Shown here one piece after another: positions 25,941 through 50,972 of a DNA stretch of 64,000 nt. The stretch spans positions 3,810-67,809 of the forward strand of contig NZ_JBIIDX010000001.1 of the NCBI RefSeq assembly GCF_044238155.1, in the 5' to 3' direction. The first letter of the stretch is position 1, and every line of letters starts with the position of its first letter. The DNA is from Aestuariivirga sp. GTDB taxonomy: Bacteria; Pseudomonadota; Alphaproteobacteria; Rhizobiales; Aestuariivirgaceae. Position numbers and translations under genes: made by a program. A model generated the notes under the pieces. The model saw only the letters and a list, made by a program, of their open reading frames with translations. It did not search any database and had not been told where the DNA came from.

Positions 25941-26033
25941 GAAGGAAAAAGGCCCTCAGAAATTCTGATACGGCAACAATCAGACTTGTTCTATGATGCA
26001 GCCAAATAGGCAAGTAAAGCGAGAAACCGCGGT

Positions 26034-28871: not shown

Positions 28872-29158
28872 GCGTCAGCATTGCGGGCGAGCTTCCGTAA
28901 GGCCTGTGCATCAAAGGCTGCAGATGGCGCCCATTCCGGGTTTTCTGTTGCAGACTGTCGCCTGATGAAACCAATTATTGTCCCTCTAGCTTGCATGAAG
29001 GCGCCAAGCATGGGGTCGGGTAAGGACGGGCGTATGTCAGCCTCAACTTATCTTGCCTTACGTTGAACTGCCAATTGACAAGCAAGCCGAATTGGAGCGG
29101 ATGTGACTGACCGGGCGCGTGAAGGCTTCCGGAGCAGATCAGATGGAGGCAAGTCAGC

Positions 29159-34582: not shown

Positions 34583-35596
34583 TCATCGTGACATCACCTG
34601 CCGCACATGCCGGACGGCAGTGTCAAGATCGTCATGGGCAGCGCCCGGCCGGCCTCGCGCGGCGCCAGCACCAAACCAGCCGACACGTCCGTCAGCGACG
34701 AGGCGTTCAATCAGTGACCGGCGGTCTGCGGCGGTCTCGATCATGCCGGTCTCGAACAGCCAGCGCACAGGCGTCAGGCCTGTCCGCCGTTCCAACACGG
34801 CCTTGCGGTAGAGCCAGTTGCCCAGCCGCAGCTCGACGCCGCGACGCTGAGGCAGCGGATAGACCGAGACCCGCGGTGAAGCCTGCAGCGCATCGGCCAG
34901 CATGGATATCGAATCACTGGTCACCACGATTTCGGAGGCAGCGGACAGGGCCGCCCGGTAGTGGTTGTCGGGCTGCCCGAAGACGGTGAGCCGGTTGGGC
35001 GGCGTGATGGCCTGCCGCAGCATGGCGATTGCCACCTCGGGCGTGCGCGGGCTGGTGTGCACATCGAGCAGGCGGCCCTTGGCACTGGCATGCGCGAGGG
35101 CCTCGCGTGCAAGGTCCTGGGCCACCTGGCCGTCGAGCTGGTCGGGAAAGGCGGGTCCGCCCACCAGCAGAACCACCGGGCCGGTGCCTTCGTCGTTCGC
35201 CCGGGCTGGCGGCCGCGCAGCCAGCGGCATCTGCAGCTCAACCACATTGGCGGCTGCTGGCAGGCGATACTGCGCGGTGGTCAGCACCGCATCGAAGTGT
35301 TGGCTGGCGGCGGCCGGACGTCCGAGGCAGATGATTCGTGTATGGCCGCCAGACTTTTTCTTGATGTCGCGGGCGATCACGCTGGTCATGGCTTCCGCGC
35401 ACAGCACAAGATCGGGCCAGGGCGCCGCCGGCGGCTTGTCGACGCGCTGGCTGGCAAACAGTGGATGCGATGGTCCGCGAAAACGCAGCGTCTTGATTTC
35501 ATGCGGCCAGCCGAGTGCCTGGGCCAGCGCCAGCATTTGGTCAAGGTCGCCCTTGCGCCCGCCGGAGAGAAGCCAGACAATCGGCTCATCCGCCAT
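34583..35596 (-). CDS. ELM1 / DUF1022 family protein, copy 1
   Basis: ORF 34583..35725 with a preferred ATG at 35596 (MADEPIVWLLSGGRKGDLDQMLALAQALGWPHEIKTL...PWPDLVLC...RIICLG). 11-nt overlap with the upstream GT4 gene. Confidence 0.7.
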   Translation of the reverse strand: MADEPIVWLLSGGRKGDLDQMLALAQALGWPHEIKTLRFRGPSHPLFASQRVDKPPAAPWPDLVLCAEAMTSVIARDIKKKSGGHTRIICLGRPAAASQHFDAVLTTAQYRLPAAANVVELQMPLAARPPARANDEGTGPVVLLVGGPAFPDQLDGQVAQDLAREALAHASAKGRLLDVHTSPRTPEVAIAMLRQAITPPNRLTVFGQPDNHYRAALSAASEIVVTSDSISMLADALQASPRVSVYPLPQRRGVELRLGNWLYRKAVLERRTGLTPVRWLFETGMIETAADRRSLIERLVADGRVGWFGAGAARGRPGAAHDDLDTAVRHVRQVMSR

Positions 35597-36767
35597 GGGC
35601 CGTACTCTTCGCCTCGTGCAGCACGCGCTCGTAACTGGCCAGCAGGCCGGACAATATGGAATCCCAGCTATAGTCGAGCGCGCGCTGCCGGGCCGCCTTG
35701 CCCATACGCTGGCGCAGGCCGGCATCGCTCACCAGTGCGGCAAGTGCTGCAGCGAGGCCCGCCTCGTCGCCTGCGCTGACCAGCCGGCCGGTGGCTCCCT
35801 CCTGCACTAGTGAATTGCTGCCGCTCGACAGGGCGTTGACGGCAGGAAGCCCGCTGGCCATCGCCTCGAGGGTTACGTTGCCGAACGTTTCGCTCTCGCT
35901 TGGAAAGAAGAAGATGTCGGAAGAGGCATAGGCCGTTGCCAGCTCCTCGCCATGCAGAAAGCCTGCAAACACGCCGTTCATGAGGCCTTCCTTCATGCTG
36001 ACCAGTTCCGGCCCGTCGCCGATCACCAGTGGCCGTACCGCGCGCCCCTCTGCCGTGAGCCGGTTCATCACCCGCATGAACACGGCGGTATTCTTCTCCT
36101 TCACCAGCCGTCCGGCATAGGAGATCACCACCTCGCCATCGGCCATGCCAAGCCTCCGCCGCCAGTCCATGCTGCGCCTGTCCGGTGCGAACAGGCTGCT
36201 GTCGACGCCGCGCGCCCAGATCTCCACCGCCTGCGACTGGCCGTCGCGGCGGATGATCTCGGCCATCGATTCGGAGGGTGGATAGACGCGGCGTACCCGA
36301 TTGTAGAAATGGCGCAGGTAGCGCCGGCCCAATGGCTCGAGAAAGCCGAGGCCGTAGAAGCGGAGGTAGGTGTCATAGCGGGTGTGATAGGAGGCAACCA
36401 CGGGCACCCCCCAGCGCTCTGCGAGCTTCAGTGCCTGATAGCCCAGTATGTCCGGCACCGCGATGTGAAACAGTGTTGGCCGGAACGCCGCGAGCCGCTG
36501 CCTTGCGGTCTCGGGCAGTCCCCGTGCGATGCGGTATTCGGGGCGGCCCGGAATGGCGAAGGATGGCACCGGCACGAGCTCTCCGGCCGAGGCGAAGGCA
36601 GGGCTTTCTGCCACTGGCGCAAACACCAGAACCGGCACGCCGCGGCTTTCCAGAAATGCCACGAGACGGTTCAGCGTCAGTGCCACGCCGTCCTTGATGT
36701 AGTTGTAGTTGCCGGTGAACAGGGCCACCCGCAGCTCAGGGCCGGGCTGGCCTGTGCCGTCTGCCAC
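35586..36767 (-). CDS. glycosyltransferase family 4 (GT-B, retaining type)
   Basis: 393 aa. N-terminal FTGNYNYIKDGVA motif and a C-terminal E-x7-E-like region (FFFPSESETFGNVTLEAMASGLP). Confidence 0.85.
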   Translation of the reverse strand: MADGTGQPGPELRVALFTGNYNYIKDGVALTLNRLVAFLESRGVPVLVFAPVAESPAFASAGELVPVPSFAIPGRPEYRIARGLPETARQRLAAFRPTLFHIAVPDILGYQALKLAERWGVPVVASYHTRYDTYLRFYGLGFLEPLGRRYLRHFYNRVRRVYPPSESMAEIIRRDGQSQAVEIWARGVDSSLFAPDRRSMDWRRRLGMADGEVVISYAGRLVKEKNTAVFMRVMNRLTAEGRAVRPLVIGDGPELVSMKEGLMNGVFAGFLHGEELATAYASSDIFFFPSESETFGNVTLEAMASGLPAVNALSSGSNSLVQEGATGRLVSAGDEAGLAAALAALVSDAGLRQRMGKAARQRALDYSWDSILSGLLASYERVLHEAKSTAHGG

Positions 36768-36775
36768 GATGGGGC

Positions 36776-37702
36776 TCAGGCCGCGGCCTTCAGCGGCGCC
36801 AGCGGAGGCACGCTCTTCATGACGTCATAGGAATCATGCCGGATGAAGTTGTTGCTCATCGCCTCCTTGATCTGGGCGTCGGTCACCAGGCCCTTCTCAT
36901 AAGCCTCCTTCAGAAGGCCGAAGAAGAATGCCTCCTGATTGCGGTCGGGGTGGCGGGCATAGCGGCCGAGCAAGGCGTGATCGCCAAACAGCTTGCGCCG
37001 CATGCGCATGATCCAGCCGATAACGGGCACGAATTCGGTGGGCGTATAGTCAACCTTGAGGCCGGTCTTCCATGGCTGCGTGCGGCGCCTGGTGTTGTGG
37101 ATCATCTTGGTCGCCGGGGTGAGCTTGTCGAAGTCGTTCCACTCGTCCTCGAAGGTGCCAATGCTGTTGCGGTCCTCCATCAGCAGCGAGATCCAGTTGT
37201 GATAGTCGCGCTTGCCCTCGAACAGTTCGTTGAAGCTCTTTTCCACGTCCCAGTGCTTCAGCCGGGCGCAATCGAGCAGCATGACGCTCGAGGCGAAGGC
37301 GCCGTTCTTGAACTTCGAGCCGCGGCACATGATGGCCTTGCCCTTCATGTCGCGGCTGAGCAGCTCCCATACATCCTGAACCGCGAAGACATCCGGATCC
37401 ACCACCAGGGCGCGGCCCTGATAGCCCATCAGCTGCGGCGGCAGGAAGCGGGTCAGTGTGAAGGACTGCAGGTCATTCTCGTGCCAGACGCGCTTCACGC
37501 CATGGCGCATGTAGGTCTGCCCCTCGCGCTTGGCGAAGAAGGGGTAGTCTTCCTGCTGCATGACGGTGACGTCGAACTGGTCGGCATGCGCCGAATTGCG
37601 CTTCATCGAATAGGCCGAGACGATGGCGCCGATCGACTGCTTGTTGTTGGTCTGGATGAAGATATGGGGCCGAGTGGCGCCCGCATGTCCGGTCGCAGCC
37701 AT
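36776..37702 (-). CDS. GT8-like GT-A nucleotide-sugar transferase, copy 1
   Basis: 308 aa. TRFLPPQL...ALVVDPDVF (DxD-like)...SSVMLLD follows the order of GT8 motifs. It is a paralog of 52364..53278. Confidence 0.5.
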   Translation of the reverse strand: MAATGHAGATRPHIFIQTNNKQSIGAIVSAYSMKRNSAHADQFDVTVMQQEDYPFFAKREGQTYMRHGVKRVWHENDLQSFTLTRFLPPQLMGYQGRALVVDPDVFAVQDVWELLSRDMKGKAIMCRGSKFKNGAFASSVMLLDCARLKHWDVEKSFNELFEGKRDYHNWISLLMEDRNSIGTFEDEWNDFDKLTPATKMIHNTRRRTQPWKTGLKVDYTPTEFVPVIGWIMRMRRKLFGDHALLGRYARHPDRNQEAFFFGLLKEAYEKGLVTDAQIKEAMSNNFIRHDSYDVMKSVPPLAPLKAAA

Positions 37703-37807
37703 GACAGATCTCCGAAACTATTGCTTACTCGACGCCCGTGTATCATGTACTGACCGGCGGTTCAAACGCTGCCATCGGGCGGCTATCGGTCACAAGGGCA
37801 CAAGCTT

Positions 37808-38914
37808 TTGCAATCAAACGGGAATCCCGGTCAACAGGTGAGCCCGCCACGGGTCTGGGTGGTGCAGAGCCCGCATTCCGGCGACAACACCCAGCTCCGG
37901 GCCCTGGCAGCGGGCCTCGGCTGGCCCTCCGAGGTCAAGCAGCTCGTCTACCGCAATTGGGAACCGCTGGCCCGGCTGCTGAGCCTTGCCAGTCTCGCTG
38001 GCGTCGACCGTGCCCGTTCGAGCCCGTTGGCCCCGCCCTGGCCCGATCTGATCATCTGCTCCGGCCGCGCCGCCGAGGCGGTGGCCTTCTGGATCCGCAG
38101 GCAGAAGCCCTCTTGCCGCATTGTCTTCCTCGGAACTCCCTGGGCCGCCCATCGTCACTTCGACCTGATCATCACCACGCCGCAGTACCGGCTGCCGCAG
38201 GCCCGGAACATTCTGCACAATCTCTTGCCGCTGCATGATGCAACGCCAAACCTGCTGGCAGATGCGGCGGCGCGCTGGCAAGGGCGGCTGGCGCATCTGC
38301 CACTGCCGCTCACGGCTGTTCTGGTCGGTGGGCGCAGCGGCCCCTATCTGATGACGCCGGAGGCAGCCGCCCGGCTCGGGCGTGCCGCAAGCGACATCGC
38401 TGCAGCCGAGGGTGGCGCTCTCCTTGTCACCACCAGCGCCCGCACCAGCGAGGCGGCGGCAGCCGCACTCTTGGCGGCGATCGGGGTGCCCTGCCACCTG
38501 CACCGCTGGACCAAGGCGGCGGACGAAAACCCGTTTCATGCCTTCCTGGGGCTTGCCAGCCGCATCATCGTTACGGCCGATTCAGTATCGATGATGGCCG
38601 AGGCCGTCAGCACCGGGAAGCCGGTGCTGCTGTTTGACATTGAACATGGGCGTTATGCCATGCGCGCCGAAGATAGCGCCCCGCAGCCCGCGCCAATTGG
38701 CTGGCGTGGCCGCAGCCTTGATACCACGCTGTTCCGGCTGCTCATCAACCATGCGCCGGCGCGTTTCTCGCGCGACCTGCGCATCGTGCACCGGCAGCTG
38801 GTGGCCGCCGGCCATGCCCAGTGGATTGGCGCGCCGCAGCAGGCCCCGGTGCCCCCGCCCGGCGATGAGCTGGCCCGCGCGGTGGCTCGCATCCGCAGCC
38901 TTTTTGGCCTATGA
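37808..38914 (+). CDS. ELM1 / DUF1022 family protein, copy 2
   Basis: 368 aa from TTG at 37808 (GTG at 37838 is also possible). VWVVQSPHSGDNTQLRALAAGLGWPSEVKQL...PWPDLIICSG...RIVFLG aligns with copies 1 and 3. Confidence 0.7.
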   Translation: MQSNGNPGQQVSPPRVWVVQSPHSGDNTQLRALAAGLGWPSEVKQLVYRNWEPLARLLSLASLAGVDRARSSPLAPPWPDLIICSGRAAEAVAFWIRRQKPSCRIVFLGTPWAAHRHFDLIITTPQYRLPQARNILHNLLPLHDATPNLLADAAARWQGRLAHLPLPLTAVLVGGRSGPYLMTPEAAARLGRAASDIAAAEGGALLVTTSARTSEAAAAALLAAIGVPCHLHRWTKAADENPFHAFLGLASRIIVTADSVSMMAEAVSTGKPVLLFDIEHGRYAMRAEDSAPQPAPIGWRGRSLDTTLFRLLINHAPARFSRDLRIVHRQLVAAGHAQWIGAPQQAPVPPPGDELARAVARIRSLFGL

Positions 38915-38929: not shown

Positions 38930-40312
38930 TTGCCCGGGAATGCTGACCTGATGCCTGCCCATAGCCACAAGAGCCTTGCCGACCGGTGGGTCAGCCTCAG
39001 GGGGGCGGCCTGGAAGGCGCTGCTGCGCCAGGCAGAGGCCTTGGCCTATCTGGTCGCGGGCCTGCCGGTGGCGCTCAGGCACGCGTTCGCGCCACGGCCC
39101 ACGGCTGATCTTCCGTCTGCTGACTATCTTCACCGCTACTATGCCTGGAATTACTGGCGGTTGCCGTGGGGACCGGTCAAGGCCGTGCTGGCAGCGCTCG
39201 TCTGGCCGCTGGCGCTGGTCGTCACGCTGTGGCTGTTTACCAGGCGCAATGGCGCGGCGATTGCCGCACGCACTGGCATCGGCGTTCCAGCCCAGCTGCT
39301 GGGTCAGGTGGCGATGGCGCTGCGCTTCGGCATTGCGCCCTTCTGGTATTACATGTTCGAGCTCTATCTGCCCGAGCGCAGGCAGCGGGCCGGGCTTTAC
39401 CTCACCGCTCACGAGACGATTGGCCCGGCTTACGGGGCGCTGCAGCCGCCCCCGGGGGCCGATCACCTGGATGACAAGATCTGGTTTGCCGAACACTGCC
39501 ACCGGCAGGGCGTGCGGGCGGTGCCTGTGCTGATGCATTTCAGCCGTGGGCTGCCGCAGCAGCTTGCCGGCGGTGTTGATGAGCTGCCGCCCAGCGACCT
39601 GTTCGTGAAGCCGCGCTCAGGTTCCGGCGGCCACCGCATGGAACGCTGGGACTGCATCGGTGACGGGCGCTACCGCAACGCCCATGGCGAGGTACTCGAC
39701 CGTGCGGCCTTGATGGATAAGCTCAAGCTCCAGTCACTCAAGGATGACTTTCTGGTGCAGCCGCGGCTGGCCAACGATCCCGTGCTTGATGACATCGCCA
39801 ATGGCGCGCTGGCCACCGTGCGCCTGCTTACGTGCCGCAACGAGCAGGGCCAGCCGGAGGCCGTCAAGGCCGCCTTCCGCATGGCGATCGGCAATCAGGT
39901 GGTCGACAATTTCCACCAGGGCGGGCTGGCCACTGCGGTGGATCTTGGCACCGGCCAGATCGGCATCGCTTCCGATCTCGGCATCAGTCCAGGCGTTGGC
40001 TGGCGTGACACCCACCCGGTCAGCGGTGCGCGGTTTGCGGGCCGCACGCTGCCGCACTGGCGGCAAGTGGTGGCGCTGGGCATCCGGGCGCATCAGGCCT
40101 TCCCTGATCGCGTGGTCGTGGGCTGGGATATTGCCATGCTCGCCGACGGCGCAATGGTCATCGAAGGCAACGGCAGGCCCGACCTCGACATCCACCAGCG
40201 CGCTGAGCAAGGGCCTGCCGGTGAAAGCCGGATTGCGGACCTGTTGCGCTTCAATGTGGCAGGGGTGGGGCGCGGTTCCCATACTGAATGTCCGACTACA
40301 GCAATGCGTTGA
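38930..40312 (+). CDS. sugar-transfer-associated ATP-grasp family ligase with an N-terminal membrane segment
   Basis: 460 aa. Hydrophobic segments VKAVLAALVWPLALVVTLWLF and LLGQVAMALRFGIAPFWYYMF. ATP-grasp body LFVKPRSGSGG...FLVQPRL...NFHQGGLA...GWDIAMLADGAMVIEGN. Confidence 0.7.
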   Translation: MPGNADLMPAHSHKSLADRWVSLRGAAWKALLRQAEALAYLVAGLPVALRHAFAPRPTADLPSADYLHRYYAWNYWRLPWGPVKAVLAALVWPLALVVTLWLFTRRNGAAIAARTGIGVPAQLLGQVAMALRFGIAPFWYYMFELYLPERRQRAGLYLTAHETIGPAYGALQPPPGADHLDDKIWFAEHCHRQGVRAVPVLMHFSRGLPQQLAGGVDELPPSDLFVKPRSGSGGHRMERWDCIGDGRYRNAHGEVLDRAALMDKLKLQSLKDDFLVQPRLANDPVLDDIANGALATVRLLTCRNEQGQPEAVKAAFRMAIGNQVVDNFHQGGLATAVDLGTGQIGIASDLGISPGVGWRDTHPVSGARFAGRTLPHWRQVVALGIRAHQAFPDRVVVGWDIAMLADGAMVIEGNGRPDLDIHQRAEQGPAGESRIADLLRFNVAGVGRGSHTECPTTAMR

Positions 40313-40372: not shown

Positions 40373-41284
40373 ATGCAGCTCCCCAACATTTATGACCTCC
40401 GCACCGGTGTGCGCCGTCTCATTTCTGCCAGTTCCGCAGTGCTTCCCCGCGAGACTGGCATCCGGGCGGAGCGGTGGTTTCGCGGTTATGAGGATTCCAA
40501 GAAACTCGCTAGTGCCGATGGAGTTGTTGTGTCGTTTGGCAAGAGCGGACGGACTTGGCTGAGGGTTTTGATCTGGCGTTACTTCGCGAAACGCAATGGT
40601 TACGCAGGCGAAGGCATCAGCGAGTTTGATGAGTTCCGCCACCGTAACCCCAGTGTACCTGTCCTGTTTTTTACGCATGATAACTATCTCAAGGACTATG
40701 CCGGACATGACCACAAGTCCCGGCTCTACGGGAAGGCCCCGGTTGTCCTGCTCGTGCGCGACCCGCGAGATACCGCGGTGTCACAATATTTCCAGTGGAA
40801 GCATCGCATCGCGCCGCGCAAGAAAGTGATCAACAATTATCCCCTCAATGATGACGGGCTTTACAGTTTTGTGTCTGGTGATCAATCCGGCATTCCCAAG
40901 ATTATCGATTTTATGAACGCCTGGGCGAAGGAGATTGGCGACATGCCGCACCTTCTCGTTGTTAAGTACGAGGATTTGCGGGCAGATACCCAGGGTGAAC
41001 TGCGCCGGGTACTGGAGTTTTTCGGCCAGCATCCAACCAGCGAGGAACTGAAAGACGCTGTCACCTTTGCATCGGTTGATAACATGCGCCGGATGGAGCT
41101 CGAAAACGCCCGAAATGCTAGCGCCCATCGCAGCCTCAGGCCCGCCGACGCGAACGATCCCTCCAGTTTCAAGGTCCGCCGCGCCAAGGTCGGCGGGTGG
41201 CGTGACTATGTGAGTGCGGATGAGGCAGCAACTCTTGATGCCATGGTCAGAGGACGGCTCTCGGCAGTATTCGGTTATCAGTGA
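40373..41284 (+). CDS. PAPS-dependent sulfotransferase domain protein
   Basis: 303 aa. 5'-PSB-like FGKSGRTWL and 3'-PB-like LVRDPRDTAVSQY. It is the first gene of the lower-GC block. Confidence 0.7.
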   Translation: MQLPNIYDLRTGVRRLISASSAVLPRETGIRAERWFRGYEDSKKLASADGVVVSFGKSGRTWLRVLIWRYFAKRNGYAGEGISEFDEFRHRNPSVPVLFFTHDNYLKDYAGHDHKSRLYGKAPVVLLVRDPRDTAVSQYFQWKHRIAPRKKVINNYPLNDDGLYSFVSGDQSGIPKIIDFMNAWAKEIGDMPHLLVVKYEDLRADTQGELRRVLEFFGQHPTSEELKDAVTFASVDNMRRMELENARNASAHRSLRPADANDPSSFKVRRAKVGGWRDYVSADEAATLDAMVRGRLSAVFGYQ

Positions 41285-41329: not shown

Positions 41330-42385
41330 CTAACGCTTGGCTATCTTGTCCCAGCCAACTGGTGTGTTTGCGGCTGTTGCACAGGTCATGACTGATCCGA
41401 TCACCTCGTCAATGTGCTTCGGCGCCAGTCCATAACCAGGACGCACGCTCCGTACCGCGGATCTTGTTACGGTTTCGCCGGCTTTCATATCTTTCACGAA
41501 ATACAGGGAGCGGCGGAACATGACATTGCCGACCTCGCTCGATTTCCGCCCATAGTCAATTTGGCCTAAAGCATTCCAGGCAGTGCGCGAACCCCTGCAG
41601 AGTTGCGCGAATTCCGCCGGTTCCAGTGAAAAGCTGTCATCTGGGCCTCCACCAGTTCGATCCAGCGTCATGTGCTTCTCGATTATGGTGGCGCCCAGCG
41701 CCACACTGGCTATGGCTGTCGTATTGTCGATCGTATGATCGGAAAGTCCGATCGGCACGCCAAAACGCCTTGCCATGTCGGGAATGGTGGCAAGATTATA
41801 GTCCTCTGGCGGTGCCGGATAGCCTGAAACGCAGTGCAGCAGGGCCAGTTCTTCACACCCGCCTTCCCGCGCCGCAGCCACGGCTTCTTTGATCTCTTCG
41901 AGATCAGCCATTCCAGTTGAGATAATCATCGGCTTGCGTTTCGAGGCGACATAGCGGATGAGGTCAAGGTCGACCGCCTCGAACGACGCAATCTTATAAG
42001 CAGGTGCGCGAAGCTCTTCCAAGAAGTCTACCGCCGTATGGTCAAACGGCGTGGAGAACAACGTAATGCCGCGTTTTCTCGCATGTGCGAATAGTGCCTC
42101 GTGCCATTCCCAGGGCGTATGGGCCCACTCATAGAGCTCGTAGAGTGTGCGCCCCGCCCATAGGCCATCCTGGATCTGGAAATCCGGTAGGTTGGAACGC
42201 AGGGTTATCGTATCGGGCCGGTAGGTTTGGATCTTCACAGCATCGGCCCCGGCCGCCTGGGCGGCGTCGATAATACTGAGGGCTGCTTCGAGGCGTCCGT
42301 TGTGATTGGCGGAGAGTTCGCTGATCACATAAGGAGGGGCCTCGGCCGAGATCTCTCTTCCGTTGATGATGATTTTTGGTGTCAT
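41330..42385 (-). CDS. pseI: pseudaminic acid synthase (NeuB family)
   Basis: 351 aa. PYVISELSANHNGRLEAALSIIDAAQAAGADAVKIQTY and a C-terminal SAF/antifreeze-like domain. Confidence 0.85.
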   Translation of the reverse strand: MTPKIIINGREISAEAPPYVISELSANHNGRLEAALSIIDAAQAAGADAVKIQTYRPDTITLRSNLPDFQIQDGLWAGRTLYELYEWAHTPWEWHEALFAHARKRGITLFSTPFDHTAVDFLEELRAPAYKIASFEAVDLDLIRYVASKRKPMIISTGMADLEEIKEAVAAAREGGCEELALLHCVSGYPAPPEDYNLATIPDMARRFGVPIGLSDHTIDNTTAIASVALGATIIEKHMTLDRTGGGPDDSFSLEPAEFAQLCRGSRTAWNALGQIDYGRKSSEVGNVMFRRSLYFVKDMKAGETVTRSAVRSVRPGYGLAPKHIDEVIGSVMTCATAANTPVGWDKIAKR

Positions 42386-42452
42386 GTCGTTCTGGGTCTC
42401 GCAACCGCGTTTAAGGTGATGGACTTGAGCAATGGACTGGACAGCAACGGTT

Positions 42453-43094
42453 TCATTTCAATTTCTTGAGGCGGATTTCGTAGACGTGCCCGTGCAAGTG
42501 GAAGAACGCGGGATAGCGCTCTGGGTCGCAAACGCGTAGTATGTCGAACTGTTCGGCAATCGATTTGCCCGGATCGATCTCGCTGTCTGCAGGTATGCGC
42601 CTTCGGTAATAACTTGCTGTGACCTCAGGTTGCGGCACTGGAATTCTTCCCTGCCGAATCATGCCTATCACCTCATCCATCAACTTCAGTTCGTTGGCGA
42701 AGAGAGCGGCGTTGATCTCTTCGTGGAGTGCATGTGGGGCTACCTCGAAAGTTCTCTTTGACCAAACATCACCACTGTCGACTTTCTCTGCCGCGTCGAT
42801 TGCGGAAACGGTCAGGGTGTGAGCGCCTTCGATGATAGCCCAGACGTGTGGGCTCCACCCTCGGCCTCTCGGCAGGTCACTTGCGTGCAGGACGATGACA
42901 TGCCCGTAGAGGGCCCTCCGTTCGGCCGGGATTATCTCGGAGCAGGAAATGAGGAACAGCACATCGCCACCGCCAAGCTTCTCCACCTCATGCAGTAGGG
43001 TTGTTTCATCGCCGGGTGTCTGCTGGTCACGCCAGGTCTCGAGCCAGGGAATGACCGGGTGATGGCGGCTCGAACAGAGAAGGTCGATCTTCAT
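42453..43094 (-). CDS. formyltransferase-domain protein occupying the slot where the acetyltransferase PseH would be expected
   Basis: 213 aa. IVLHASDLPRGRGWSP corresponds to the N-x-H-x-SLLPxxRG formyltransferase motif, but the Asn position is Val. VDSGDVW corresponds to the catalytic Asp region. Confidence 0.65.
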   Translation of the reverse strand: MKIDLLCSSRHHPVIPWLETWRDQQTPGDETTLLHEVEKLGGGDVLFLISCSEIIPAERRALYGHVIVLHASDLPRGRGWSPHVWAIIEGAHTLTVSAIDAAEKVDSGDVWSKRTFEVAPHALHEEINAALFANELKLMDEVIGMIRQGRIPVPQPEVTASYYRRRIPADSEIDPGKSIAEQFDILRVCDPERYPAFFHLHGHVYEIRLKKLK

Positions 43095-44188
43095 GGTGCC
43101 GTTCCAGCGTTCATGACTGCGACAACGCGCTCCGTTCCGCCACCGTCGCAGATCCTAGCCGAGTGCGCAGAAAGCGCGGCAAGGCAGTCGGGTAACATGG
43201 CCTGTTCCAGTACTCGACGTAGGCGGTGGGGAAAATCATCGGCCAGCAAGGAACCAGGGTATAGGGCGGCGCCCGCGGCGATCATGTTGCGGGCAATACC
43301 CGCCTGGTTGGCGGCAGTTTCCGTGATGATGGTGGGCAGTCCAAGGCAACAGCGCTCCCAGGTTGTCGTACCGGCAGCCCCAATCGCTAGGTCCGCCTCA
43401 GCCATGAGGCTAGGCATGTCATTGACATTGACGGCGACCTCGGCCGACCATGGCAGTTCGGCCGCCAGCTTCCTGACGCGGGGGAGGGCAGGTGAATTAT
43501 TTCCCATGATGATGATCAGGCTAGCGTCCGGCGGCAAGTTTGCGGTTTTCATGGCTAGCAGTATGCGCGAGGTGGCATCGGCAACGTCAACCCCCCCCAT
43601 GGAAATGAGCAGGCGCCGGGGTTTCCGCTCCCCACGGCCTGCAAGAGACGCCTCGCGCAGAGCCGCAAAACCCGGCCTCAACAGCGCATAGTGCGGACCG
43701 ACAATCCGCCGGGCCGTGGAGGGAAGCAGAGGGTCGTAATCGGACGCTCTCCGGCCCAGATTTTGGTCCAGCAGCAAGTCAGCAAGATGCGGCCTGTCGG
43801 CAAGATCGTCAATCACCAGCAGTTTCGTACCTCTGGGGCGGGCTACATCTTCCCAGCGCTCATCGAAGGCATAATGGTCCAATACTAGCCAATCTGGTGG
43901 CTCGGCCGAGAGTGCAGCGCGGGTGCTCGCAGAATCCCTCTGCCAGTTCTCTCCTGCCCAGGCGGCATGGGCAGGCGGTGCTTCAGGTGTGGGTCCCTGA
44001 GGTGCCGGCAGGAGGGTTACTGAAAAGCCTTTCGATCTGATGTGCGCTGCCAGGTTGCCAGGAAGTTCGCGCGTGATGAAATGGCAAATTGTACCCGCTT
44101 TGCGCAGTGCGCTTGCAAGCGTCAGGCACCGCATGACGTGCCCTGTGCCCATCTCGATTGAGGCATCCACACGAAAAGCTACTCGCAT
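43091..44188 (-). CDS. pseG: UDP-2,4-diacetamido-2,4,6-trideoxy-beta-L-altropyranose hydrolase
   Basis: ORF 43091..44266 with a preferred ATG at 44188 (MRVAFRVDASIEMGTGHVMRCLTLASALRKAG), the typical PseG N-terminus. ATGA overlap with the downstream gene. Confidence 0.8.
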   Translation of the reverse strand: MRVAFRVDASIEMGTGHVMRCLTLASALRKAGTICHFITRELPGNLAAHIRSKGFSVTLLPAPQGPTPEAPPAHAAWAGENWQRDSASTRAALSAEPPDWLVLDHYAFDERWEDVARPRGTKLLVIDDLADRPHLADLLLDQNLGRRASDYDPLLPSTARRIVGPHYALLRPGFAALREASLAGRGERKPRRLLISMGGVDVADATSRILLAMKTANLPPDASLIIIMGNNSPALPRVRKLAAELPWSAEVAVNVNDMPSLMAEADLAIGAAGTTTWERCCLGLPTIITETAANQAGIARNMIAAGAALYPGSLLADDFPHRLRRVLEQAMLPDCLAALSAHSARICDGGGTERVVAVMNAGTAP

Positions 44189-44190
44189 GG

Positions 44191-46230
44191 CTAGTTGATC
44201 CGCTTGAAACCGGCGTGGCACACTGGCCCTTTGAGAAGCGATGTTACGTCGAGCCCGTCTTCGCACTTGGCAATGAGGGCAAACACCTTGTCAATCGCCT
44301 CCGCATATCGCTCAATCACCTCGGGGGTATGTGCAAGACAGGCATAGGTGCCGGTTGCGGCCAGGAAGCCAAGGGCCAGCATTTCTTGAGTGATAAGAGT
44401 CTTGTACGCCAGCGCATTCGCGCCGGGAAAGCTGAAAGTGGCGAGGGCGGGAAGGCCACTGTGATCAATGGCGAGCTTGTGACGGTCTGCGACCTGCTGC
44501 CAACACCCACGGATGGTTCGGCCAATTTCCGTGATGCGCTCCCACGAACGCTCGCGCGCCATGACGTCAAGCGTCTTGAGAGCTGCGGCGGGCCCGATGC
44601 GTTCAGTCCAGAAGGTCGAGGAGATGAAGGTAGTCTGTGCGGCCTCCATGACTTCGCGGCGACCGACCACGGCATTTATGGCATAGCCATTGCCGAGTGT
44701 CTTGCCAAACACAACTATGTCAGGCTCGATGCCATATTTCAGATACAGTCCACCAAATGTCTCACGAAAACCTGAGGTACATTCATCGAAGATCAGCACG
44801 ACGCCATGGCGCGTTGCCAGTTCGCGTACCTTCTGCAGAAAGTTAGCGTGAGGTTCGGCATTGCGCACGACTTCCATCTTGATCACGCCGATACCACCGC
44901 CGGACAGAAGGCCTTCCAGCGCAGCAATATCGTTGTAGTTGAAGGGGTGTACCACGCCGCGAAGCGCCTTGGGTACGCCTGCTGGGTTCAGTCCGGGCAG
45001 CAGGTGTCCTGCGAGGCTGTCGTCGCTGCCGAGATTGGCCGATAGGTACCAGTCATGCCAACCGTGGTAACCACACACCGCCACGCCATCCCGGCCCGAG
45101 GCAGCACGCGCAATGCGTATCGCAACGGCATTTGCCTCACCGCCAGAACGGGTAAACCTCACCATCCCCGCGAAGGGCGCGATCTCGATCAATCTTTCGG
45201 CAAGCCATACTTCCTCTGGACAATTGAGGGTCGTCATGTTGCCGCTGTCGATCACCGAGTGCACTGCGGCATCAACCTCCGGATGCCCGTAACCCAGTGT
45301 GTTGGTGCCAATCCCCATCAGGCTCATGTCGATGAGAGCATGTCCGTCCATGTCCCAGACGGTACATCCCTTGGCGCGGCTGAAATAGGCAGGCCATTGT
45401 TCTGGCGCGAACATTTCTGCTCTCTTGGACAGCAACATGCTTCCACCAGGAATAATCTGTTTGGCTCGTTTCCATAACTTTTGCCCGCTGCCCATGCTGG
45501 CTCCCTCATTACGGGAAATGCCCCGATTCAACAGAAACTCCTCAGGCTTGGCCTGCCAAGCGAAAAGAGCTTGCTGCCAGGTGAAATCGTCACGTCCGCC
45601 AAGGTTGCAGACAAGAGCGTCCACAGCATTCAGATCGGCTGCCTCATCCACAGTCCAACGAATATAGGATAGATCTTCCAGATTGCTTAGGCAGGCGCGG
45701 CGGAACGATCCCCTGCGGAGATAGGGCGTGACGTGCTCTCGATCAAAAGCGGAAGAGGCCTCGTTTGCTGCGCGCATCAGTGCGGCAGCCGTGAATACCT
45801 CAATATCCAATCCGTCAGGATAGCTCGCGGGATCGATGTTGCTGGCATAATCAACGTCTTCTTGTTGACGCAGCGCGATCACCGCATCGATCAGTGCTGG
45901 ATCAGTCAGTGGGCAATCCGCTGTGATCCGCACTACAAAGTCGGCTGCGTGGGAAGCGGCAGCGCGTGCGAAACGATCCAGTACGTCTCGCTCACTTCCG
46001 CGCACGACAGCAATCTTGCGTGCTGCCAAATGTGCAGCTAGCACGTCGTCCGATGGCTGGTCGGTGGTAGCGACGACCACCTTGTCCAGCATTCGCGCCC
46101 GCAGTGTCCGGTTGATTACCCAGTCGATGACTGGTCTTCCTGCGAGAAGCCGCATTACTTTTCCTGGAAGACGGCTGGATCCCATGCGGGCTTGGATGAT
46201 GGCGATAGTAGTCATGACTTTGGCCAGCAT
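44191..46230 (-). CDS. fusion of an SpsF/COG1861-type cytidylyltransferase with a class III (GSA-aminomutase-like) aminotransferase
   Basis: 679 aa. N-terminus IAIIQARMGSSRLPGKVM. The C-terminal half has GYGHPEV...RFTRSGGEANAVAIRIAR...and the PLP-lysine region VVFGKTLGNG. Confidence 0.75.
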   Translation of the reverse strand: MLAKVMTTIAIIQARMGSSRLPGKVMRLLAGRPVIDWVINRTLRARMLDKVVVATTDQPSDDVLAAHLAARKIAVVRGSERDVLDRFARAAASHAADFVVRITADCPLTDPALIDAVIALRQQEDVDYASNIDPASYPDGLDIEVFTAAALMRAANEASSAFDREHVTPYLRRGSFRRACLSNLEDLSYIRWTVDEAADLNAVDALVCNLGGRDDFTWQQALFAWQAKPEEFLLNRGISRNEGASMGSGQKLWKRAKQIIPGGSMLLSKRAEMFAPEQWPAYFSRAKGCTVWDMDGHALIDMSLMGIGTNTLGYGHPEVDAAVHSVIDSGNMTTLNCPEEVWLAERLIEIAPFAGMVRFTRSGGEANAVAIRIARAASGRDGVAVCGYHGWHDWYLSANLGSDDSLAGHLLPGLNPAGVPKALRGVVHPFNYNDIAALEGLLSGGGIGVIKMEVVRNAEPHANFLQKVRELATRHGVVLIFDECTSGFRETFGGLYLKYGIEPDIVVFGKTLGNGYAINAVVGRREVMEAAQTTFISSTFWTERIGPAAALKTLDVMARERSWERITEIGRTIRGCWQQVADRHKLAIDHSGLPALATFSFPGANALAYKTLITQEMLALGFLAATGTYACLAHTPEVIERYAEAIDKVFALIAKCEDGLDVTSLLKGPVCHAGFKRIN

Positions 46231-47039
46231 CTCGGGTCAAGAAGTCGCGTATCGGTCGTGGTGAGATGATTTGGCAGTGGCGGAAGTTTAGGGACATCTA
46301 GAATTTCGGCAAGCTGCACGGCGTTATCGACACCAATCACAACCCGCTCGACAGGTCGGGCCATCGCGAGCGCGAGTGCGGCTTGCGCGAGTGTTGTCTC
46401 CTGAGCAGCCACCCAAGCACGCCAGTCAGACAGTAGGCCACCCCAGCGGCTGGCCCACCGCGGTGTTTCGTTAAGTGTGAGTAATCCCTGCAGATATACC
46501 GAGCGTGCATGCACCCGCACGCCGTCGGAGGCCAGTTGGAGAAGCATGTCATTCCAGCGGGCGTCGAGCGCGGAGAGTGGTATCTGCACAATGTCTGGCG
46601 TCATGCGCCCCAACAGCGCCCGGAGCTCATCCGGTTCATAAACCGAAAAACCGATAGCCCGCGTGAGACCATTCCCTTTGATGCTGGCCAGCGCTGAGGC
46701 AAGACGAGGTTCTTCATGAATTTGTGCCGGAGCATGGAGGAGGATTGCCTCAAAACATTCGATGCCAAGGCGCGCAGCGCTCGCATTTATGCGACATGAC
46801 AGTTCCTCAATGTGTTCAAGTCTTCCGACTTTGCCCACCACGTTGAAACCTGAAATGCCAACCTGTCCCAACACGGACTCAGCAGAGCCATAGGCCTCCG
46901 CGGTATCAATCGTATTGATACTTGCGGCTCTGGCTAGCGACAATATACGCGCAACTTCCGAACGGGGCACTTGGCCGGAGCCAGCAACTCCATAATCCAT
47001 GCCGAACTGCACCGTGCCTAAGGCCAGTCGCTCAGTCAT
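46212..47039 (-). CDS. aldo/keto reductase
   Basis: ORF 46212..47141 with a preferred ATG at 47039 (MTERLALGTVQFGMDYG...INTIDTAEAYGSAESVLG). It overlaps both neighbouring genes. Confidence 0.75.
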   Translation of the reverse strand: MTERLALGTVQFGMDYGVAGSGQVPRSEVARILSLARAASINTIDTAEAYGSAESVLGQVGISGFNVVGKVGRLEHIEELSCRINASAARLGIECFEAILLHAPAQIHEEPRLASALASIKGNGLTRAIGFSVYEPDELRALLGRMTPDIVQIPLSALDARWNDMLLQLASDGVRVHARSVYLQGLLTLNETPRWASRWGGLLSDWRAWVAAQETTLAQAALALAMARPVERVVIGVDNAVQLAEILDVPKLPPLPNHLTTTDTRLLDPRCWPKS

Positions 47040-47673
47040 GACCCGACAGCTTGCGCAAAAGGGATACAGACACCCACTCGTGGGCGTCATCGGTCGGCTT
47101 GTCCGACAAATGATGATAGACTTCATGCGATAGGCAAACATAGCTGGGATGCCAGTCGAACAGTCGACGATAGTCCATTTTGAACGACCAAAGGCCTTCC
47201 TTGTGGTGGTAGGGCCTGGTCACTGGACTGATTGAGAAAAAATCGTGGATCACCAGCCAGCCCGGAGTAGCTAAGACGCGGTCAGCTTCTGCGGCGATAC
47301 GGAACAGATCGTCTCGGTCGCACAGGTAGAGACAGAAACCAAATATGACCACATCAAATTCACCAGCTGCAAACGGGAGGGCGTCGGCTGTGCCCACTTG
47401 GGCATCGACCCCCAACTTCCGTGCATGTGATACTGCGGCAACAGACGGATCAATGCCGCTCACCTTTGCAGTACTAGCAGCAGCGATTGCAGCGCTGCGT
47501 TGTCCGGCGCCGCACCCAACCTCCAGGACTCGCCTAATCTCCGAGATGGTTGAAATATGGCGCAGAGTGGCCACGATGCGATCGTCATCTGAAACACCTC
47601 GCGAAACAGCTGCGCTGTTTCGAAGAAACCACGCATCGCCTTCGCCACGAAGAAAAGCGTCTCGCTGGCGCAT
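47032..47673 (-). CDS. class I SAM-dependent methyltransferase, resembling pseudaminic-acid-biosynthesis-associated methylases
   Basis: 213 aa. SAM motif VLEVGCGAGQRS. The N-terminus FLRGEGDAWFLRN is typical of the Pse-associated methylase family as I recall it. Confidence 0.7.
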   Translation of the reverse strand: MRQRDAFLRGEGDAWFLRNSAAVSRGVSDDDRIVATLRHISTISEIRRVLEVGCGAGQRSAAIAAASTAKVSGIDPSVAAVSHARKLGVDAQVGTADALPFAAGEFDVVIFGFCLYLCDRDDLFRIAAEADRVLATPGWLVIHDFFSISPVTRPYHHKEGLWSFKMDYRRLFDWHPSYVCLSHEVYHHLSDKPTDDAHEWVSVSLLRKLSGHD

Positions 47674-47676
47674 GTG

Positions 47677-48819
47677 TCAGCCTGTCTCGCGGGCCAGAAC
47701 GGCAAGCACTCGTTCCCGCTGGTTTTCGGTGAGTGTAGCAAATATCGGAAGGCTTATAGCGCGACCATAGTAGCTCTCAGCAGATTGGAAGTTATCCGAA
47801 TTAAATCCCATGCGCTGATACCATGGGTGCCGATAGACGGGTATGTAGTGGAGATTGACCCCAATACCATGTTTGCGCAGTCCCTGAAAAATCGTGCGGT
47901 GTTGATCAGGATCAACCTGGATCACATAAAGATGCCAACTTGACAGAGTGTCTGGATGCTGATGCGGTCGTATAACATTCAGATCGACCAGCGCTGCATC
48001 ATAGGCTGCCGCATGGGCGCGGCGCGCTGATAGATAATGATCGAGCTGCATCATCTGGCTGGTGCCTAATGCAGCAGCAATGTCGGTAAGCCTATAATTC
48101 CATCCCAATTCAATTTGTTCATAATACCAAGAGCCATCATAGCGTGACATTTTATCGCGATCGCGGGTAATGCCATGACTCCTCAACATGCGCATGCGCT
48201 CGGCGAGAGCAGCATCTTGGGTGGTCGCAATTCCTCCTTCGCCTGTGGTTACGATCTTTACAGGATGAAAGCTGAATATGCAGATATCTGACCATCTGCA
48301 GTCGCCAACCGGTTTGCCGTGATAGCTGGCGCCAATCGCATGACTGGCATCCTCTATCACGCAAATTCCATATTTCTTCGCCAAGACACCGATGCGACTC
48401 ATTTCACAAGATTGGCCGGCGAAATGAACTGGAACGATGATTTTTGGCAGCCGGCCTTCACGTGCAGCCACCAAAAGTTTTTCCTCTAGGGCATCAGGAC
48501 TCATGCAGTAGGTTAATGGGTCAATGTCGACGAAATCGACTGATGCGCCACAATAAACCGCACAATTGGCAGAGGCAACAAAAGTGATAGGCGAAGTCCA
48601 TAGCTGATCGCCCGGGCCAAGCCCCAGTGCAAGGCACGCGATGTGCAGTGCCGAAGTTGCCGAATTCACAGCGATGGCATGGGCAGCCCCAACCCGGTCC
48701 GCAACAGCCTGCTCGAATGCTGGCACCGCAGGTCCCTGGGTGAGGAAGTCCGAACGCAAGACCTTGACCACCGCATCGATGTCCGCTTCTGTGATAGTTT
48801 GGCGTCCATAGGGAATCAT
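47677..48819 (-). CDS. pseC: UDP-4-amino-4,6-dideoxy-N-acetyl-beta-L-altrosamine transaminase
   Basis: 380 aa. MIPYGRQTITEADIDAVVKVLRSDFLTQGP, a DegT/DnrJ/EryC1 family member. Confidence 0.85.
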   Translation of the reverse strand: MIPYGRQTITEADIDAVVKVLRSDFLTQGPAVPAFEQAVADRVGAAHAIAVNSATSALHIACLALGLGPGDQLWTSPITFVASANCAVYCGASVDFVDIDPLTYCMSPDALEEKLLVAAREGRLPKIIVPVHFAGQSCEMSRIGVLAKKYGICVIEDASHAIGASYHGKPVGDCRWSDICIFSFHPVKIVTTGEGGIATTQDAALAERMRMLRSHGITRDRDKMSRYDGSWYYEQIELGWNYRLTDIAAALGTSQMMQLDHYLSARRAHAAAYDAALVDLNVIRPHQHPDTLSSWHLYVIQVDPDQHRTIFQGLRKHGIGVNLHYIPVYRHPWYQRMGFNSDNFQSAESYYGRAISLPIFATLTENQRERVLAVLARETG

Positions 48820-49817
48820 TATATGGCCCCGATTTTGGACCGGTTCTGATCAATCCACCTCGCAAGAGAGTCCGGGGTCATCCAGTCCGGGTTGCCATCA
48901 CTCGTGTAGCTGAAAGCCTCAGCAACTGCCTTTCCATTCTTGATCCGCTTGCTGTCTGCAGACCAATTATTGATTGCTGGCAATACTTTATAATAGGAAT
49001 CATATTCATATGTATGTGACGCGTCTTCGGCTCCGATCATCTGCTCGTGAAGCTTCTCTCCTGGGCGAATTCCCACGATCTCGTGCTTGGCATCGGGTGC
49101 TATGACCCGCGCGATGTCTGTTACTTTCATTGATGGTATCTTCTTCACATAGACTTCGCCGCCAACCATGTCTTCGAAAGCGTGCCAGACAAGCTCAACG
49201 CCTTGTTCGAGGCTGATCATGAAACGGGTCATGCGTGGGTCTGTAATGGGAAGTATACCCTTGTCTCTGACTGACATAAAGAAAGGAATGACCGAGCCGC
49301 GCGAGCCCATCACATTACCGTATCGGACGACGCTGAACCGGGTCTTGTGCTCGCCAGAATAGGAGTTACCAGCTACAAACAGCTTGTCGGAAGCCAGCTT
49401 GGATGCGCCGTAAAGATTGATCGGTGCAGAAGCCTTGTCGGTTGACAAGGCTACCACCGCCCTCACTCCTTTGTCGATTGCAGCGTCAATCACATTCATG
49501 GCGCCAGTTACATTGGTCTTGATGCACTCAAACGGATTATACTCAGCTGTTGGCACGATCTTGGTAGCGGCAGCATGAACCACATAGTCCACTCCATCGA
49601 AGGCGCGATAAAGCCGTTCACGATCCCGAACATCACCAATGAAGAAGCGCACTCTTGGATCCGAGCCATATGTTTTGGCCATTTCCCACTGCTTCATTTC
49701 ATCTCTCGAAAAGACAATGATCTTTTTGGGATTGAAACGCATCAGGGTCATCGGCAAGAAAGCATTGCCGAAAGAGCCTGTACCGCCGGTTATCAATATG
49801 ATGGAGTTGGATAGCAT
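48819..49817 (-). CDS. pseB: UDP-N-acetylglucosamine 4,6-dehydratase (inverting)
   Basis: 332 aa. ILITGGTGSFGNAF...FSRDEMKQ...GDVRD. Its size and motifs match PseB/FlaA1. Confidence 0.9.
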   Translation of the reverse strand: MLSNSIILITGGTGSFGNAFLPMTLMRFNPKKIIVFSRDEMKQWEMAKTYGSDPRVRFFIGDVRDRERLYRAFDGVDYVVHAAATKIVPTAEYNPFECIKTNVTGAMNVIDAAIDKGVRAVVALSTDKASAPINLYGASKLASDKLFVAGNSYSGEHKTRFSVVRYGNVMGSRGSVIPFFMSVRDKGILPITDPRMTRFMISLEQGVELVWHAFEDMVGGEVYVKKIPSMKVTDIARVIAPDAKHEIVGIRPGEKLHEQMIGAEDASHTYEYDSYYKVLPAINNWSADSKRIKNGKAVAEAFSYTSDGNPDWMTPDSLARWIDQNRSKIGAI

Positions 49818-50083
49818 AGGTCCACTCTTGTATGTTTTCCAGTTGCTCCGGCAATCCGAAGCACGTGCCAGTACCAGCGGTAGCGGCAGAAGACCAAAAC
49901 GCGATACCCCTATAGTTCCTTACCGCTGGAGGCAAGCCATAGAACCAGCCTAGTCCTCAGCCTGGTTGATACGAAGAGTGTAAAAATATGAATAATCTCA
50001 CATTATCAACATCTTAAGAGCACTTCACCACCAAAGTCCAAAGTGGGGCTCGTGCAAATGGCACCAGACGCACCATTTCTCGG

Positions 50084-50818: not shown

Positions 50819-50972
50819 ATGTTGAATTGAGGCAGATCAAGGGTTGCTAGAAAAATGTTGAACCGCCCTCATGCGTAAGATACAGAGCGACTCGAGGTTG
50901 CGCGGTAGCTCTCGTCAGTTTGTCCAATCGTAGTCAAGGCTGAGCAAGCCCGACAGCTCATGAGGTGCTGAA

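Follow-up and report, generated by a model that had tools for sequence, protein, structure and literature searches.

ELM1-family paralogs and a GT8-like partner family in a candidate glycoconjugate assembly locus of Aestuariivirga sp.

A 64,000-nucleotide (nt) stretch of the Aestuariivirga sp. genome (assembly GCF_044238155.1, contig NZ_JBIIDX010000001.1, forward strand positions 3,810–67,809; hereafter "the window") carries three paralogous genes for ELM1-family proteins, together with two genes for GT8-like proteins and one for a family GT4 glycosyltransferase. We propose, with a probability of roughly 0.55, that the segments at 34.6–41.3 kb and 52.4–56.9 kb jointly encode an assembly line, located at the cytoplasmic face of the membrane, that would build the sugar head group of a lipid-anchored glycoconjugate in the outer membrane. 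Positions given below are those of the window, and L-numbers (L001 and so on) designate homologous loci in other genomes. The genes on which the proposal is built are the following (aa, amino acids; PAPS, 3'-phosphoadenosine 5'-phosphosulfate; ABC, ATP-binding cassette).

34583..35596, minus strand: ELM1 paralog 1 (copy 1, clade E1), 337 aa; PF06258 E 6e-35, 121 bits; S-P-R-T motif
35586..36767, minus strand: GT4 retaining glycosyltransferase, 393 aa; PF00534, PF13439 and PF13692 above their cut-offs; EX7E motif read as ETFGNVTLE
36776..37702, minus strand: GT8-like protein of GT-A type, 308 aa; DxD (VVDPDVF), SSVMLL, WNDFD and HNTRRRTQPWK motifs
37808..38914, plus strand: ELM1 paralog 2 (copy 2, clade E2), 368 aa; PF06258 E 1.6e-56, 192 bits; S-A-R-T motif
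38930..40312, plus strand: sugar-transfer-associated ATP-grasp ligase, 460 aa; PF14397 E 1.4e-38
40373..41284, plus strand: PAPS-type sulfotransferase, 303 aa; PF00685 E 3e-23
52364..53278, minus strand: second GT8-like paralog, 304 aa, 53% identical to the protein at 36776-37702; directly downstream of ELM1 copy 3
53353..54360, minus strand: ELM1 paralog 3 (copy 3, clade E3), ~335 aa; PF06258 E 1.6e-41, 143 bits; canonical S-R-R-T motif
55135..56862, minus strand: ABC exporter with fused transmembrane and nucleotide-binding domains (PF00664 and PF00005), 575 aa; candidate flippase

The GT8-like, GT4 and copy 1 genes are thus read from the minus strand and diverge from copy 2 on the plus strand. 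An initial annotation of this DNA described a module with two ELM1 copies. Both are real, and every feature it listed for them, including the quoted motifs, is found in the sequence, but the count was incomplete. The third ELM1 gene and the second GT8-like gene lie in a low-GC (guanine plus cytosine) island, ~15 kb from the first two ELM1 genes, and the pairing of an ELM1 gene with a GT8-like gene therefore occurs twice in the window. The same annotation assigned a host-like composition to the module, which agrees with GC values of 0.62–0.69 at the ELM1/GT4/GT8-like genes versus 0.47–0.58 at 40–57 kb and with the synteny of the six-gene core in relatives.

ELM1 paralogs and the KdoT precedent

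All three ELM1 proteins score far above the 27-bit gathering threshold of PF06258 (Mito_fiss_Elm1/DUF1022), the family to which copies 1 and 2 had been assigned. Pairwise identity among the three is 28–34%. Copies 1 and 2 share 33% identity over ~356 residues (BLASTP E 1e-36) and are therefore homologous far beyond chance. Their N-terminal motifs, VWLLSGGRKGDLDQ in copy 1 and VWVVQSPHSGDNTQ in copy 2, are followed by GWPHEIKTL and GWPSEVKQL, respectively, and the internal motifs PWPDL and RIICLG/RIVFLG are shared as well.

The open reading frame (ORF) of copy 1 spans 34583..35725(-), and its best start is the ATG at 35596. Copy 2 begins with TTG at 37808; some gene callers use an alternative GTG at 37838 (yielding the 358-aa protein P0001), but the N-terminal extension is conserved in orthologs, which supports the TTG. 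For copy 3, the listed ORF is 53353-54234 with a TTG start, and the N-terminal motif LWVLTGPKAGDNSQ is found in frame upstream. The likely start is a CTG at 54360, six bases after a perfect AGGAGG and two codons after a TAA stop, and judging from the sequence this is probably the only plausible one. An ORF caller restricted to ATG, GTG and TTG clips copy 3 by ~42 residues and drops the first beta-strand together with the motif. The possibility that copy 3 is an N-terminally truncated pseudogene was rejected because the missing N-terminus is present in frame behind the probable CTG and the AGGAGG Shine–Dalgarno sequence.

A model of copy 2 generated with AlphaFold2 (AF2; pLDDT 85, pTM 0.83) has the two-Rossmann GT-B fold. 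This model has 82 matches in the PDB at E≤1e-3; among the matches listed, almost all are GT-B glycosyltransferases or UDP-N-acetylglucosamine (UDP-GlcNAc) 2-epimerases. Its Foldseek neighbors include MGD1, MurG, UDP-GlcNAc 2-epimerase, glycogen synthases, MshA, GumK and a GT9 enzyme (E 7e-8 to 1e-4, TM-score ~0.45), in line with the comparison to GT-B enzymes that had been suggested earlier. Alignment with copy 2 suggests the same fold for copies 1 and 3. Searching the PDB by sequence, with single sequences and with profiles, gave no match for the ELM1 or the GT8-like family, and fold comparison alone was informative. No NCBIfam model covers the window's ELM1 or GT8-like proteins. Orthologs of copy 2 with 44–71% identity are found in Alpha- and Gammaproteobacteria, in Myxococcota and in metagenome-assembled genomes of Spirochaetales.

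Biochemical precedent for this family comes from Acinetobacter baumannii. There, the ELM1-like protein A1S_2903 (GtrOC1) was genetically implicated in adding the third 3-deoxy-D-manno-octulosonic acid (Kdo) residue of the lipooligosaccharide (LOS) core (PMC10936431). The purified protein, KdoT, acts in vitro as a transferase that uses Kdo activated with cytidine monophosphate (CMP-Kdo); it is described as a CMP-Kdo:Kdo2-lipid A KdoIII transferase, a Rickettsia homolog complements the mutant, and a GT4 enzyme, GnaT/LpsB, adds N-acetylglucosaminuronic acid next (PMC12856342). NCBI names the homologs of copy 2 "ELM1/GtrOC1 family putative glycosyltransferase." The initial annotation had argued that the ELM1 proteins act on sugars and had taken bacterial members to carry only a generic label. 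The first idea is sound, given PF06258 membership, the GT-B fold and the KdoT precedent, but it is no longer new, and its premise has been outdated by papers from 2024–2025 and by the NCBI family name. For bacterial ELM1 proteins, a glycosyltransferase role is already established at the level of the family, hence the novelty of this point is modest.

The resemblance to KdoT and GnaT includes a shared Pfam family, the GT-B fold and a conserved arginine. In KdoT, the sequence SRRT was called invariant; the R180A and R180Q variants are impaired, R180K is active, and R179 is dispensable (PMC12856342). An alignment was built of 140 ELM1 sequences, drawn from 81 loci and the window. The corresponding motif S-x-R-T is retained throughout (S 99%, R 100%, T 100%; x is A, R or P), such that the arginine aligned with R180, the second of SRRT, is present in every sequence. 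About 15 further positions are at least 99% conserved.

This degree of conservation bears on whether the ELM1 proteins are enzymes at all. They could instead be noncatalytic scaffolds or adaptors that organize the true glycosyltransferases. The founding member of the family, plant ELM1, is an adaptor for DRP3A (cited in PMC10936431); the Arabidopsis protein shares the Pfam family and is the source of its name. Moreover, no catalytic base was identified in KdoT (PMC12856342). However, purified KdoT transfers Kdo in vitro on its own (PMC12856342), and the conservation of S-x-R-T and of the ~15 other positions is what would be expected for an active site. Arabidopsis ELM1 also differs in being a eukaryotic outer-membrane adaptor with no known enzymatic role, and its function has no counterpart here. 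We therefore consider a purely organizing role very improbable.

The aligned sequences form three clades separated at roughly 38% identity, and each window copy falls in a different one. Clade E2 (91 sequences) is present in all loci. Clade E3 (30 sequences) occurs in Alpha-, Gamma- and Deltaproteobacteria/Myxococcota and in Spirochaetales, and clade E1 (17 sequences) is confined to a Hyphomicrobiales-like subset. Since the three clades are separately conserved, distinct specificities are expected; the pattern would fit three enzymes of different specificities, unlike the pattern of a recent duplication. A single genome can thus carry three diverged ELM1 clades, where A. baumannii KdoT is a single enzyme, and this would broaden the KdoT family beyond one step of LOS synthesis.

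The adjacent GT4 gene is a possible further parallel to KdoT and GnaT. In 16 of 18 cases, a clade E1 ELM1 gene is the next gene downstream of GT4. In the window, the GT4 protein has the EX7E motif also present in the GT4 partner of KdoT and is well supported by its domain scores (PF00534 and PF13439 at 95 and 93 bits, both above threshold). Among NCBIfam models it comes closest to lipid glycosyltransferases (GlcNAc-PG synthase, 166 bits, and MGlcDAG synthase), with every score below cut-off. The GT4 stop lies 11 nt inside the start of copy 1, as had been noted before, and the same 11-nt overlap is kept in an Aestuariivirga relative. This arrangement makes translational coupling of the two genes plausible.

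GT8-like proteins and their linkage to ELM1

The two GT8-like proteins have PF01501 as their best match, but both fail its gathering threshold of 24.3 bits (14.8 bits, E 0.022, and 14.2 bits, E 0.033), and the 308-aa protein matches no Pfam or NCBIfam family above threshold. All of its 5438 detectable homologs are unnamed or "hypothetical." The structural comparison was more informative. An AF2 model of the 308-aa protein (pLDDT 73) has XXYLT1, GlyE, LARGE1, LgtC and glycogenin as its top Foldseek matches, and the top 46 matches are all GT8 enzymes (E 6e-7 to 1e-4). A GT-A fold is therefore the best structural match. The DxD motif, D102-P-D104, is invariant in 20 aligned sequences of the family, as is the C-terminal H...PWK stretch, which resembles the H..KPW region of GT8 enzymes in the CAZy classification. 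In contrast to this similarity, the window protein is only ~9–16% identical to the known structures and belongs to a very conserved family of its own, unnamed or annotated as hypothetical wherever a source gives a name. Identity within this family is 53–94% across phyla. The label "GT8-like" given earlier consequently stands at the level of fold, and not as membership in the Pfam GT8 family.

Gene neighborhoods were compared within a radius of 10 kb in 80 loci, one genome per species, that carry a copy-2-type ELM1 gene with 44–71% identity. Families of opposite-strand "shadow" ORFs, which arise in these high-GC loci, were identified and removed before neighbors were clustered. The GT8-like family is found near the clade E2 gene in 61 of the 80 loci, at 53–92% identity, an unusually high level for a glycosyltransferase across phyla. 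A sulfotransferase is nearby in 43 loci and a fused ABC exporter in 29, and 46 loci hold at least two ELM1 genes. Among the 49 loci of at least 15 kb, the linked families are all absent in only three. For clade E2, the neighborhood test suggested in the initial annotation thus comes out strongly positive. The ATP-grasp gene is directly downstream of the clade E2 gene in 17 loci. The nearest relatives of the window locus are in Aestuariivirga and other Hyphomicrobiales.

These comparisons define what is new in the present analysis: the three-clade structure of ELM1, the unclassified GT8-like partner family and a map of their linkage across phyla. The GT8-like proteins, although outside any Pfam family, travel with ELM1 across four phyla, alongside sulfotransferases and the ABC exporter.

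Proposed head-group assembly and the acceptor lipid

A route consistent with these genes can be outlined by analogy with KdoT. The three ELM1 paralogs would be inverting GT-B transferases of the KdoT family that use CMP-activated acidic sugars as donors, with the invariant arginine of S-x-R-T holding the donor carboxylate. The two GT8-like proteins may be hexosyltransferases of the retaining, DxD/metal-dependent type that work in alternation with the ELM1 enzymes. The GT4 enzyme, predicted to be translationally coupled to copy 1, would attach the sugar that follows, a role like that of GnaT after KdoT. This glycan could then be sulfated by the PAPS sulfotransferases and possibly amidated by the ATP-grasp ligase before the fused ABC exporter flips it. 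Decoration should precede export because the sulfotransferase and the ATP-grasp ligase are cytoplasmic-type enzymes. The acceptor would be either lipid A-core or ceramide. The proposed chemistry has counterparts in WaaA (GT30) and KpsS/KpsC, CMP-Kdo transferases that act at the inner membrane and pass an ulosonic acid from its CMP-activated form to a lipid-linked acceptor. They differ from the ELM1 proteins in having no detectable sequence relationship to them, and neither is among the structural matches listed for copy 2.

Several observations weigh against this scheme. The activity of clades E1–E3 is predicted by analogy, and the likeness to KdoT is one of family, fold and motif rather than of directly compared sequences. 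Copies 1 and 2 carry SPRT and SART, respectively, which omit the first arginine of the KdoT group's SRRT, and only copy 3 has SRRT. The Foldseek TM-scores behind the GT8-like assignment are modest (0.3–0.48). Similarity to copy 2 was the criterion for choosing the 80 loci, so the counts apply to clade E2 and not to the ELM1 family as a whole. The 64-kb window contains none of the lpx, waa, kds, lpt or sphingolipid genes, and the target may be a polysaccharide or a protein instead of a lipid anchor.

If the anchor is a lipid, one version is an inner-core unit of lipopolysaccharide (LPS) resembling KdoT/GnaT. Kdo2-lipid A would receive an additional Kdo from copy 1, to be capped by the overlapping GT4 enzyme. 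Extension and decoration of the core would fall to copy 2, the GT8-like protein and the sulfotransferase, and the exporter would act like MsbA. The action of an ELM1-like protein and a GT4 enzyme on Kdo2-lipid A, with complementation by the Rickettsia homolog, is direct biochemical precedent, and the GT4/ELM1 gene pair is conserved. Some distant related loci include genes of LPS type (LpxL-like in seven, an O-antigen-ligase cluster in two), and LptF/LptG permeases lie near the clade E2 gene in 24 of 80. Among NCBIfam models, MsbA is the second best for the exporter, after the HepA family, with both below cut-off.

However, the window differs from the A. baumannii system in that no LOS/LPS core gene is near its module: no waaA, lpxK, kdsA/B or msbA ortholog is present in the window or beside the module in close relatives. 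The exporter reaches 228 bits versus an MsbA cut-off of 602. The window also adds the GT8-like family, sulfotransferases, an ATP-grasp ligase and an ABC exporter to the KdoT/GnaT theme. Finally, LptF/G genes on the side of the cassette are often part of sphingolipid-type loci, where LptF2/G2 paralogs are known and have been implicated in sphingolipid transport (bioRxiv 10.64898/2026.04.12.717747).

The other version is a glycosphingolipid: ceramide-based lipids, produced by genes at another place in the genome, would be glycosylated by the ELM1 and GT8-like (and GT4) enzymes. Once sulfated, the glycosphingolipid would be anionic; the ABC exporter would flip it and a system of LptF2/G2 type would carry it outward. 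We judge the LPS and glycosphingolipid versions to be about equally likely, and each by itself is a tentative reading that we would not bet on.

The glycosphingolipid version derives from gene linkage. The sphingolipid locus of Caulobacter crescentus, CC_1152–CC_1168 (PMC11324152), is the reference for a gene set comprising serine palmitoyltransferase (Spt), acyl carrier protein (ACP), acyl-AMP ligase, a short-chain dehydrogenase/reductase (SDR), a diacylglycerol (DAG)-kinase-type kinase, a Tam41-like protein, a CDP-alcohol transferase, a phosphoesterase, a HIT protein and two LptF/G proteins. In many other genomes, this set encloses homologs of the ELM1, GT8-like, sulfotransferase and ABC exporter genes. 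At least one Caulobacter-type sphingolipid/LptFG marker is within 10 kb of the clade E2 gene in 40 of the 80 loci and at least two are in 22, so in half of the sampled genomes the ELM1/GT8-like set sits among sphingolipid and LptF/G genes. Serine palmitoyltransferase is identified by NF047599 in L065 (626 bits, cut-off 500), with homologs of at least 53% identity in 15 loci. Other clustered neighbors are a CerR-like SDR, acyl-AMP ligase, a DAG-kinase-type lipid kinase, an NTP_transf_3 nucleotidyltransferase, a metallophosphoesterase and, at a subthreshold match, a Tam41-like protein.

Full-type sphingolipid gene sets accompany ELM1 in L065, L058, L034, Roseomonas mucosa (L082) and Diaphorobacter (L083). 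On the R. mucosa plasmid p1-AD2, genes for a GT8-like hypothetical protein, ELM1/GtrOC1 and GT4, with locus tags RADP37_RS00345-00355, lie between an SDR and a flippase-like protein/ACP/Spt, and the cluster continues with a kinase, a CDP-alcohol transferase, a phosphoesterase, a HIT protein and two LptF/G genes, a set that matches CC_1152–CC_1168. This record (R. mucosa AD2 p1-AD2, NZ_CP025188.1, 56647-75506) constitutes a complete Caulobacter-type sphingolipid locus on a 416-kb replicon. On the Diaphorobacter IncP plasmid pDCB2, GT8-like and ELM1 genes lie between acyl-AMP ligase/ACP/Spt and a CerR-like SDR. The record (Diaphorobacter sp. JS3051 pDCB2, NZ_CP065408.1, 41360-56959) is that of a conjugative plasmid on which the cluster sits beside a Tn3 transposase; it also holds a CDP-alcohol transferase, cytidylyltransferases, a nonribosomal peptide synthetase, a P450 and a phosphopantetheinyl transferase. 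This location suggests that outer-membrane lipid pathways are movable on plasmids.

A 391-aa family, "unk391" (L045 6462-7637 and 20 other loci), occupies the position of a ceramide synthase (CerS), beside nucleotidyltransferase and LptF/G genes. It has no Pfam or NCBIfam match and on the basis of synteny is probably the bacterial enzyme, bCerS. In L045, the GT8-like gene abuts this CerS candidate on the same strand.

Against these links, tblastn with sphingolipid representatives found none of these genes in the 64-kb window. They are likewise absent, as are Lpt, Lpx and Kdo genes, from the 10 kb around the module in its closest relatives, L001–L010; the one exception among close relatives is an LptF-family gene inside the module in L013 and L014. 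In Caulobacter itself, ELM1, GT8-like and sulfotransferase genes are missing from the locus, the candidate flippase is Wzx-like and not an ABC exporter, and the glycosphingolipid is encoded separately from CC_1152–CC_1168 (PMC6445935). The 391-aa family was assigned as CerS from synteny only, and clustering of envelope genes can be coincidental. Literature searches yielded no paper that ties ELM1 to sphingolipids or to lipids of Roseomonas, and none on R. mucosa glycosphingolipids.

A broader form of the same idea is that ELM1 and GT8-like proteins, with GT4, sulfotransferases and the exporter, are the head-group glycosyltransferases and flippase of undescribed, widespread anionic sulfated glycosphingolipids. 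The window locus would then be an elaborated version, extended by pseudaminic acid (Pse), with the ceramide genes elsewhere in the genome. We advance this only as a speculative possibility, with the odds against it. The linkage map nonetheless supplies testable candidates, in cultured organisms, for sphingolipid glycosylation outside Caulobacter and Sphingomonas and for flipping at the inner membrane. One such organism is R. mucosa, a skin commensal used in atopic-dermatitis trials. According to a recent preprint, nothing is known of the route by which sphingolipids reach the cell surface (bioRxiv 10.64898/2026.04.12.717747).

Pseudaminic acid island, exporter and divergent spacer

Between the sulfotransferase gene and the second GT8-like gene lies a low-GC segment with the following genes.

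41330..52328: low-GC insertion with pseudaminic acid genes, also containing methyltransferases
41330-42385: PseI
42453-43094: formyltransferase-like protein
43091-44266: PseG
44191-46230, minus strand: cytidylyltransferase–aminotransferase fusion, 679 aa; PF02348 and class-III aminotransferase (glutamate-1-semialdehyde aminomutase-like)
47677-48819: PseC
48819-49817: PseB
50973-52328: TIGR04396 surface-carbohydrate protein

The formyltransferase-like gene occupies the position expected for PseH. Together with the CMP-sugar-type cytidylyltransferase fusion, it hints at a modified pseudaminic acid derivative.

The presence of these genes raises the alternative that the region at 34.6–57 kb makes a capsule or O-polysaccharide that contains pseudaminic acid and depends on an ABC transporter, with one or more ELM1 paralogs acting as the CMP-Pse transferase. 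A complete Pse pathway and a cytidylyltransferase are indeed inside the locus, an exporter is present, and the CMP-ulosonic acid donor of KdoT is chemically akin to CMP-Pse. However, comparison with a relative argues that the island is an addition. In the Aestuariivirga locus L001 (a 4.4-Mb contig), the GT8-like, GT4 and ELM1 genes are divergent from ELM1, ATP-grasp and sulfotransferase genes, as in the window, and another sulfotransferase and the ABC exporter come directly after this core; there are no Pse genes. Since it is absent from syntenic L001, the Pse block at 41.3–52.3 kb is an insertion into a conserved locus.

Furthermore, ELM1/GT8-like pairs, including the island-type E3 pair, occur in relatives that have no PseI or PseB homolog within 10 kb (L007, L008 and L015). 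The earlier idea that CMP-Pse is an ELM1 donor consequently finds no specific support, and on the same grounds the assignment of copy 3 as a dedicated Pse transferase was downgraded. The TIGR04396 protein of the island is an alternative candidate for handling Pse, and the window yielded no Wzm/Wzt, KpsMT, Wzx/Wzy or polymerase. A Pse-containing polysaccharide is thus quite unlikely, clearly more so than either lipid version of the preferred glycoconjugate scheme.

Two ORFs of the wider island, 54467-55138(-) and 50084-50818(-), have no Pfam or NCBIfam match even at E≤10. The former has a sulfotransferase-like KT..TS motif at its start and a 60%-identical homolog in L007. The latter is methyltransferase-like by eye. 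The identification of the exporter as MsbA itself was rejected on its score, given above, and the exporters of gammaproteobacterial loci are likewise below the cut-off. The ATP-grasp ligase has a hydrophobic N-terminal segment, AVLAALVWPLALVVTLWLF, that may serve as a membrane anchor.

The two divergent operons of the module are separated by a short spacer.

37703..37807: divergent intergenic region, 105 bp; conserved in relatives (CTGTATCATGTACT; GGTTCAAACGCCGCC)

The 105-bp length reported for this gap holds with the TTG start of copy 2 at 37808, but it becomes 135 bp if the GTG at 37838 is taken. Ten orthologous spacers were aligned, and the intergenic conservation in relatives (L001–L009) is almost coding-like. 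The spacer is probably an operator or a promoter for both operons. Scans of 37703-37807 for a sigma-70 consensus and for terminators gave nothing above shuffled sequences. A riboswitch or leader RNA was rejected because the spacer has no Rfam match and no significant RNA fold (z -0.07). The spacer also shows a GC hairpin whose changes look compensatory.

Apart from the main locus, a second low-GC patch (GC 0.56–0.58) is located at 24000-29000 and contains these genes.

24975-25940: ORF with no assigned family
26034-26762: DUF6065 gene
26982-27776: GT2 gene
27993-28871: ORF with no assigned family

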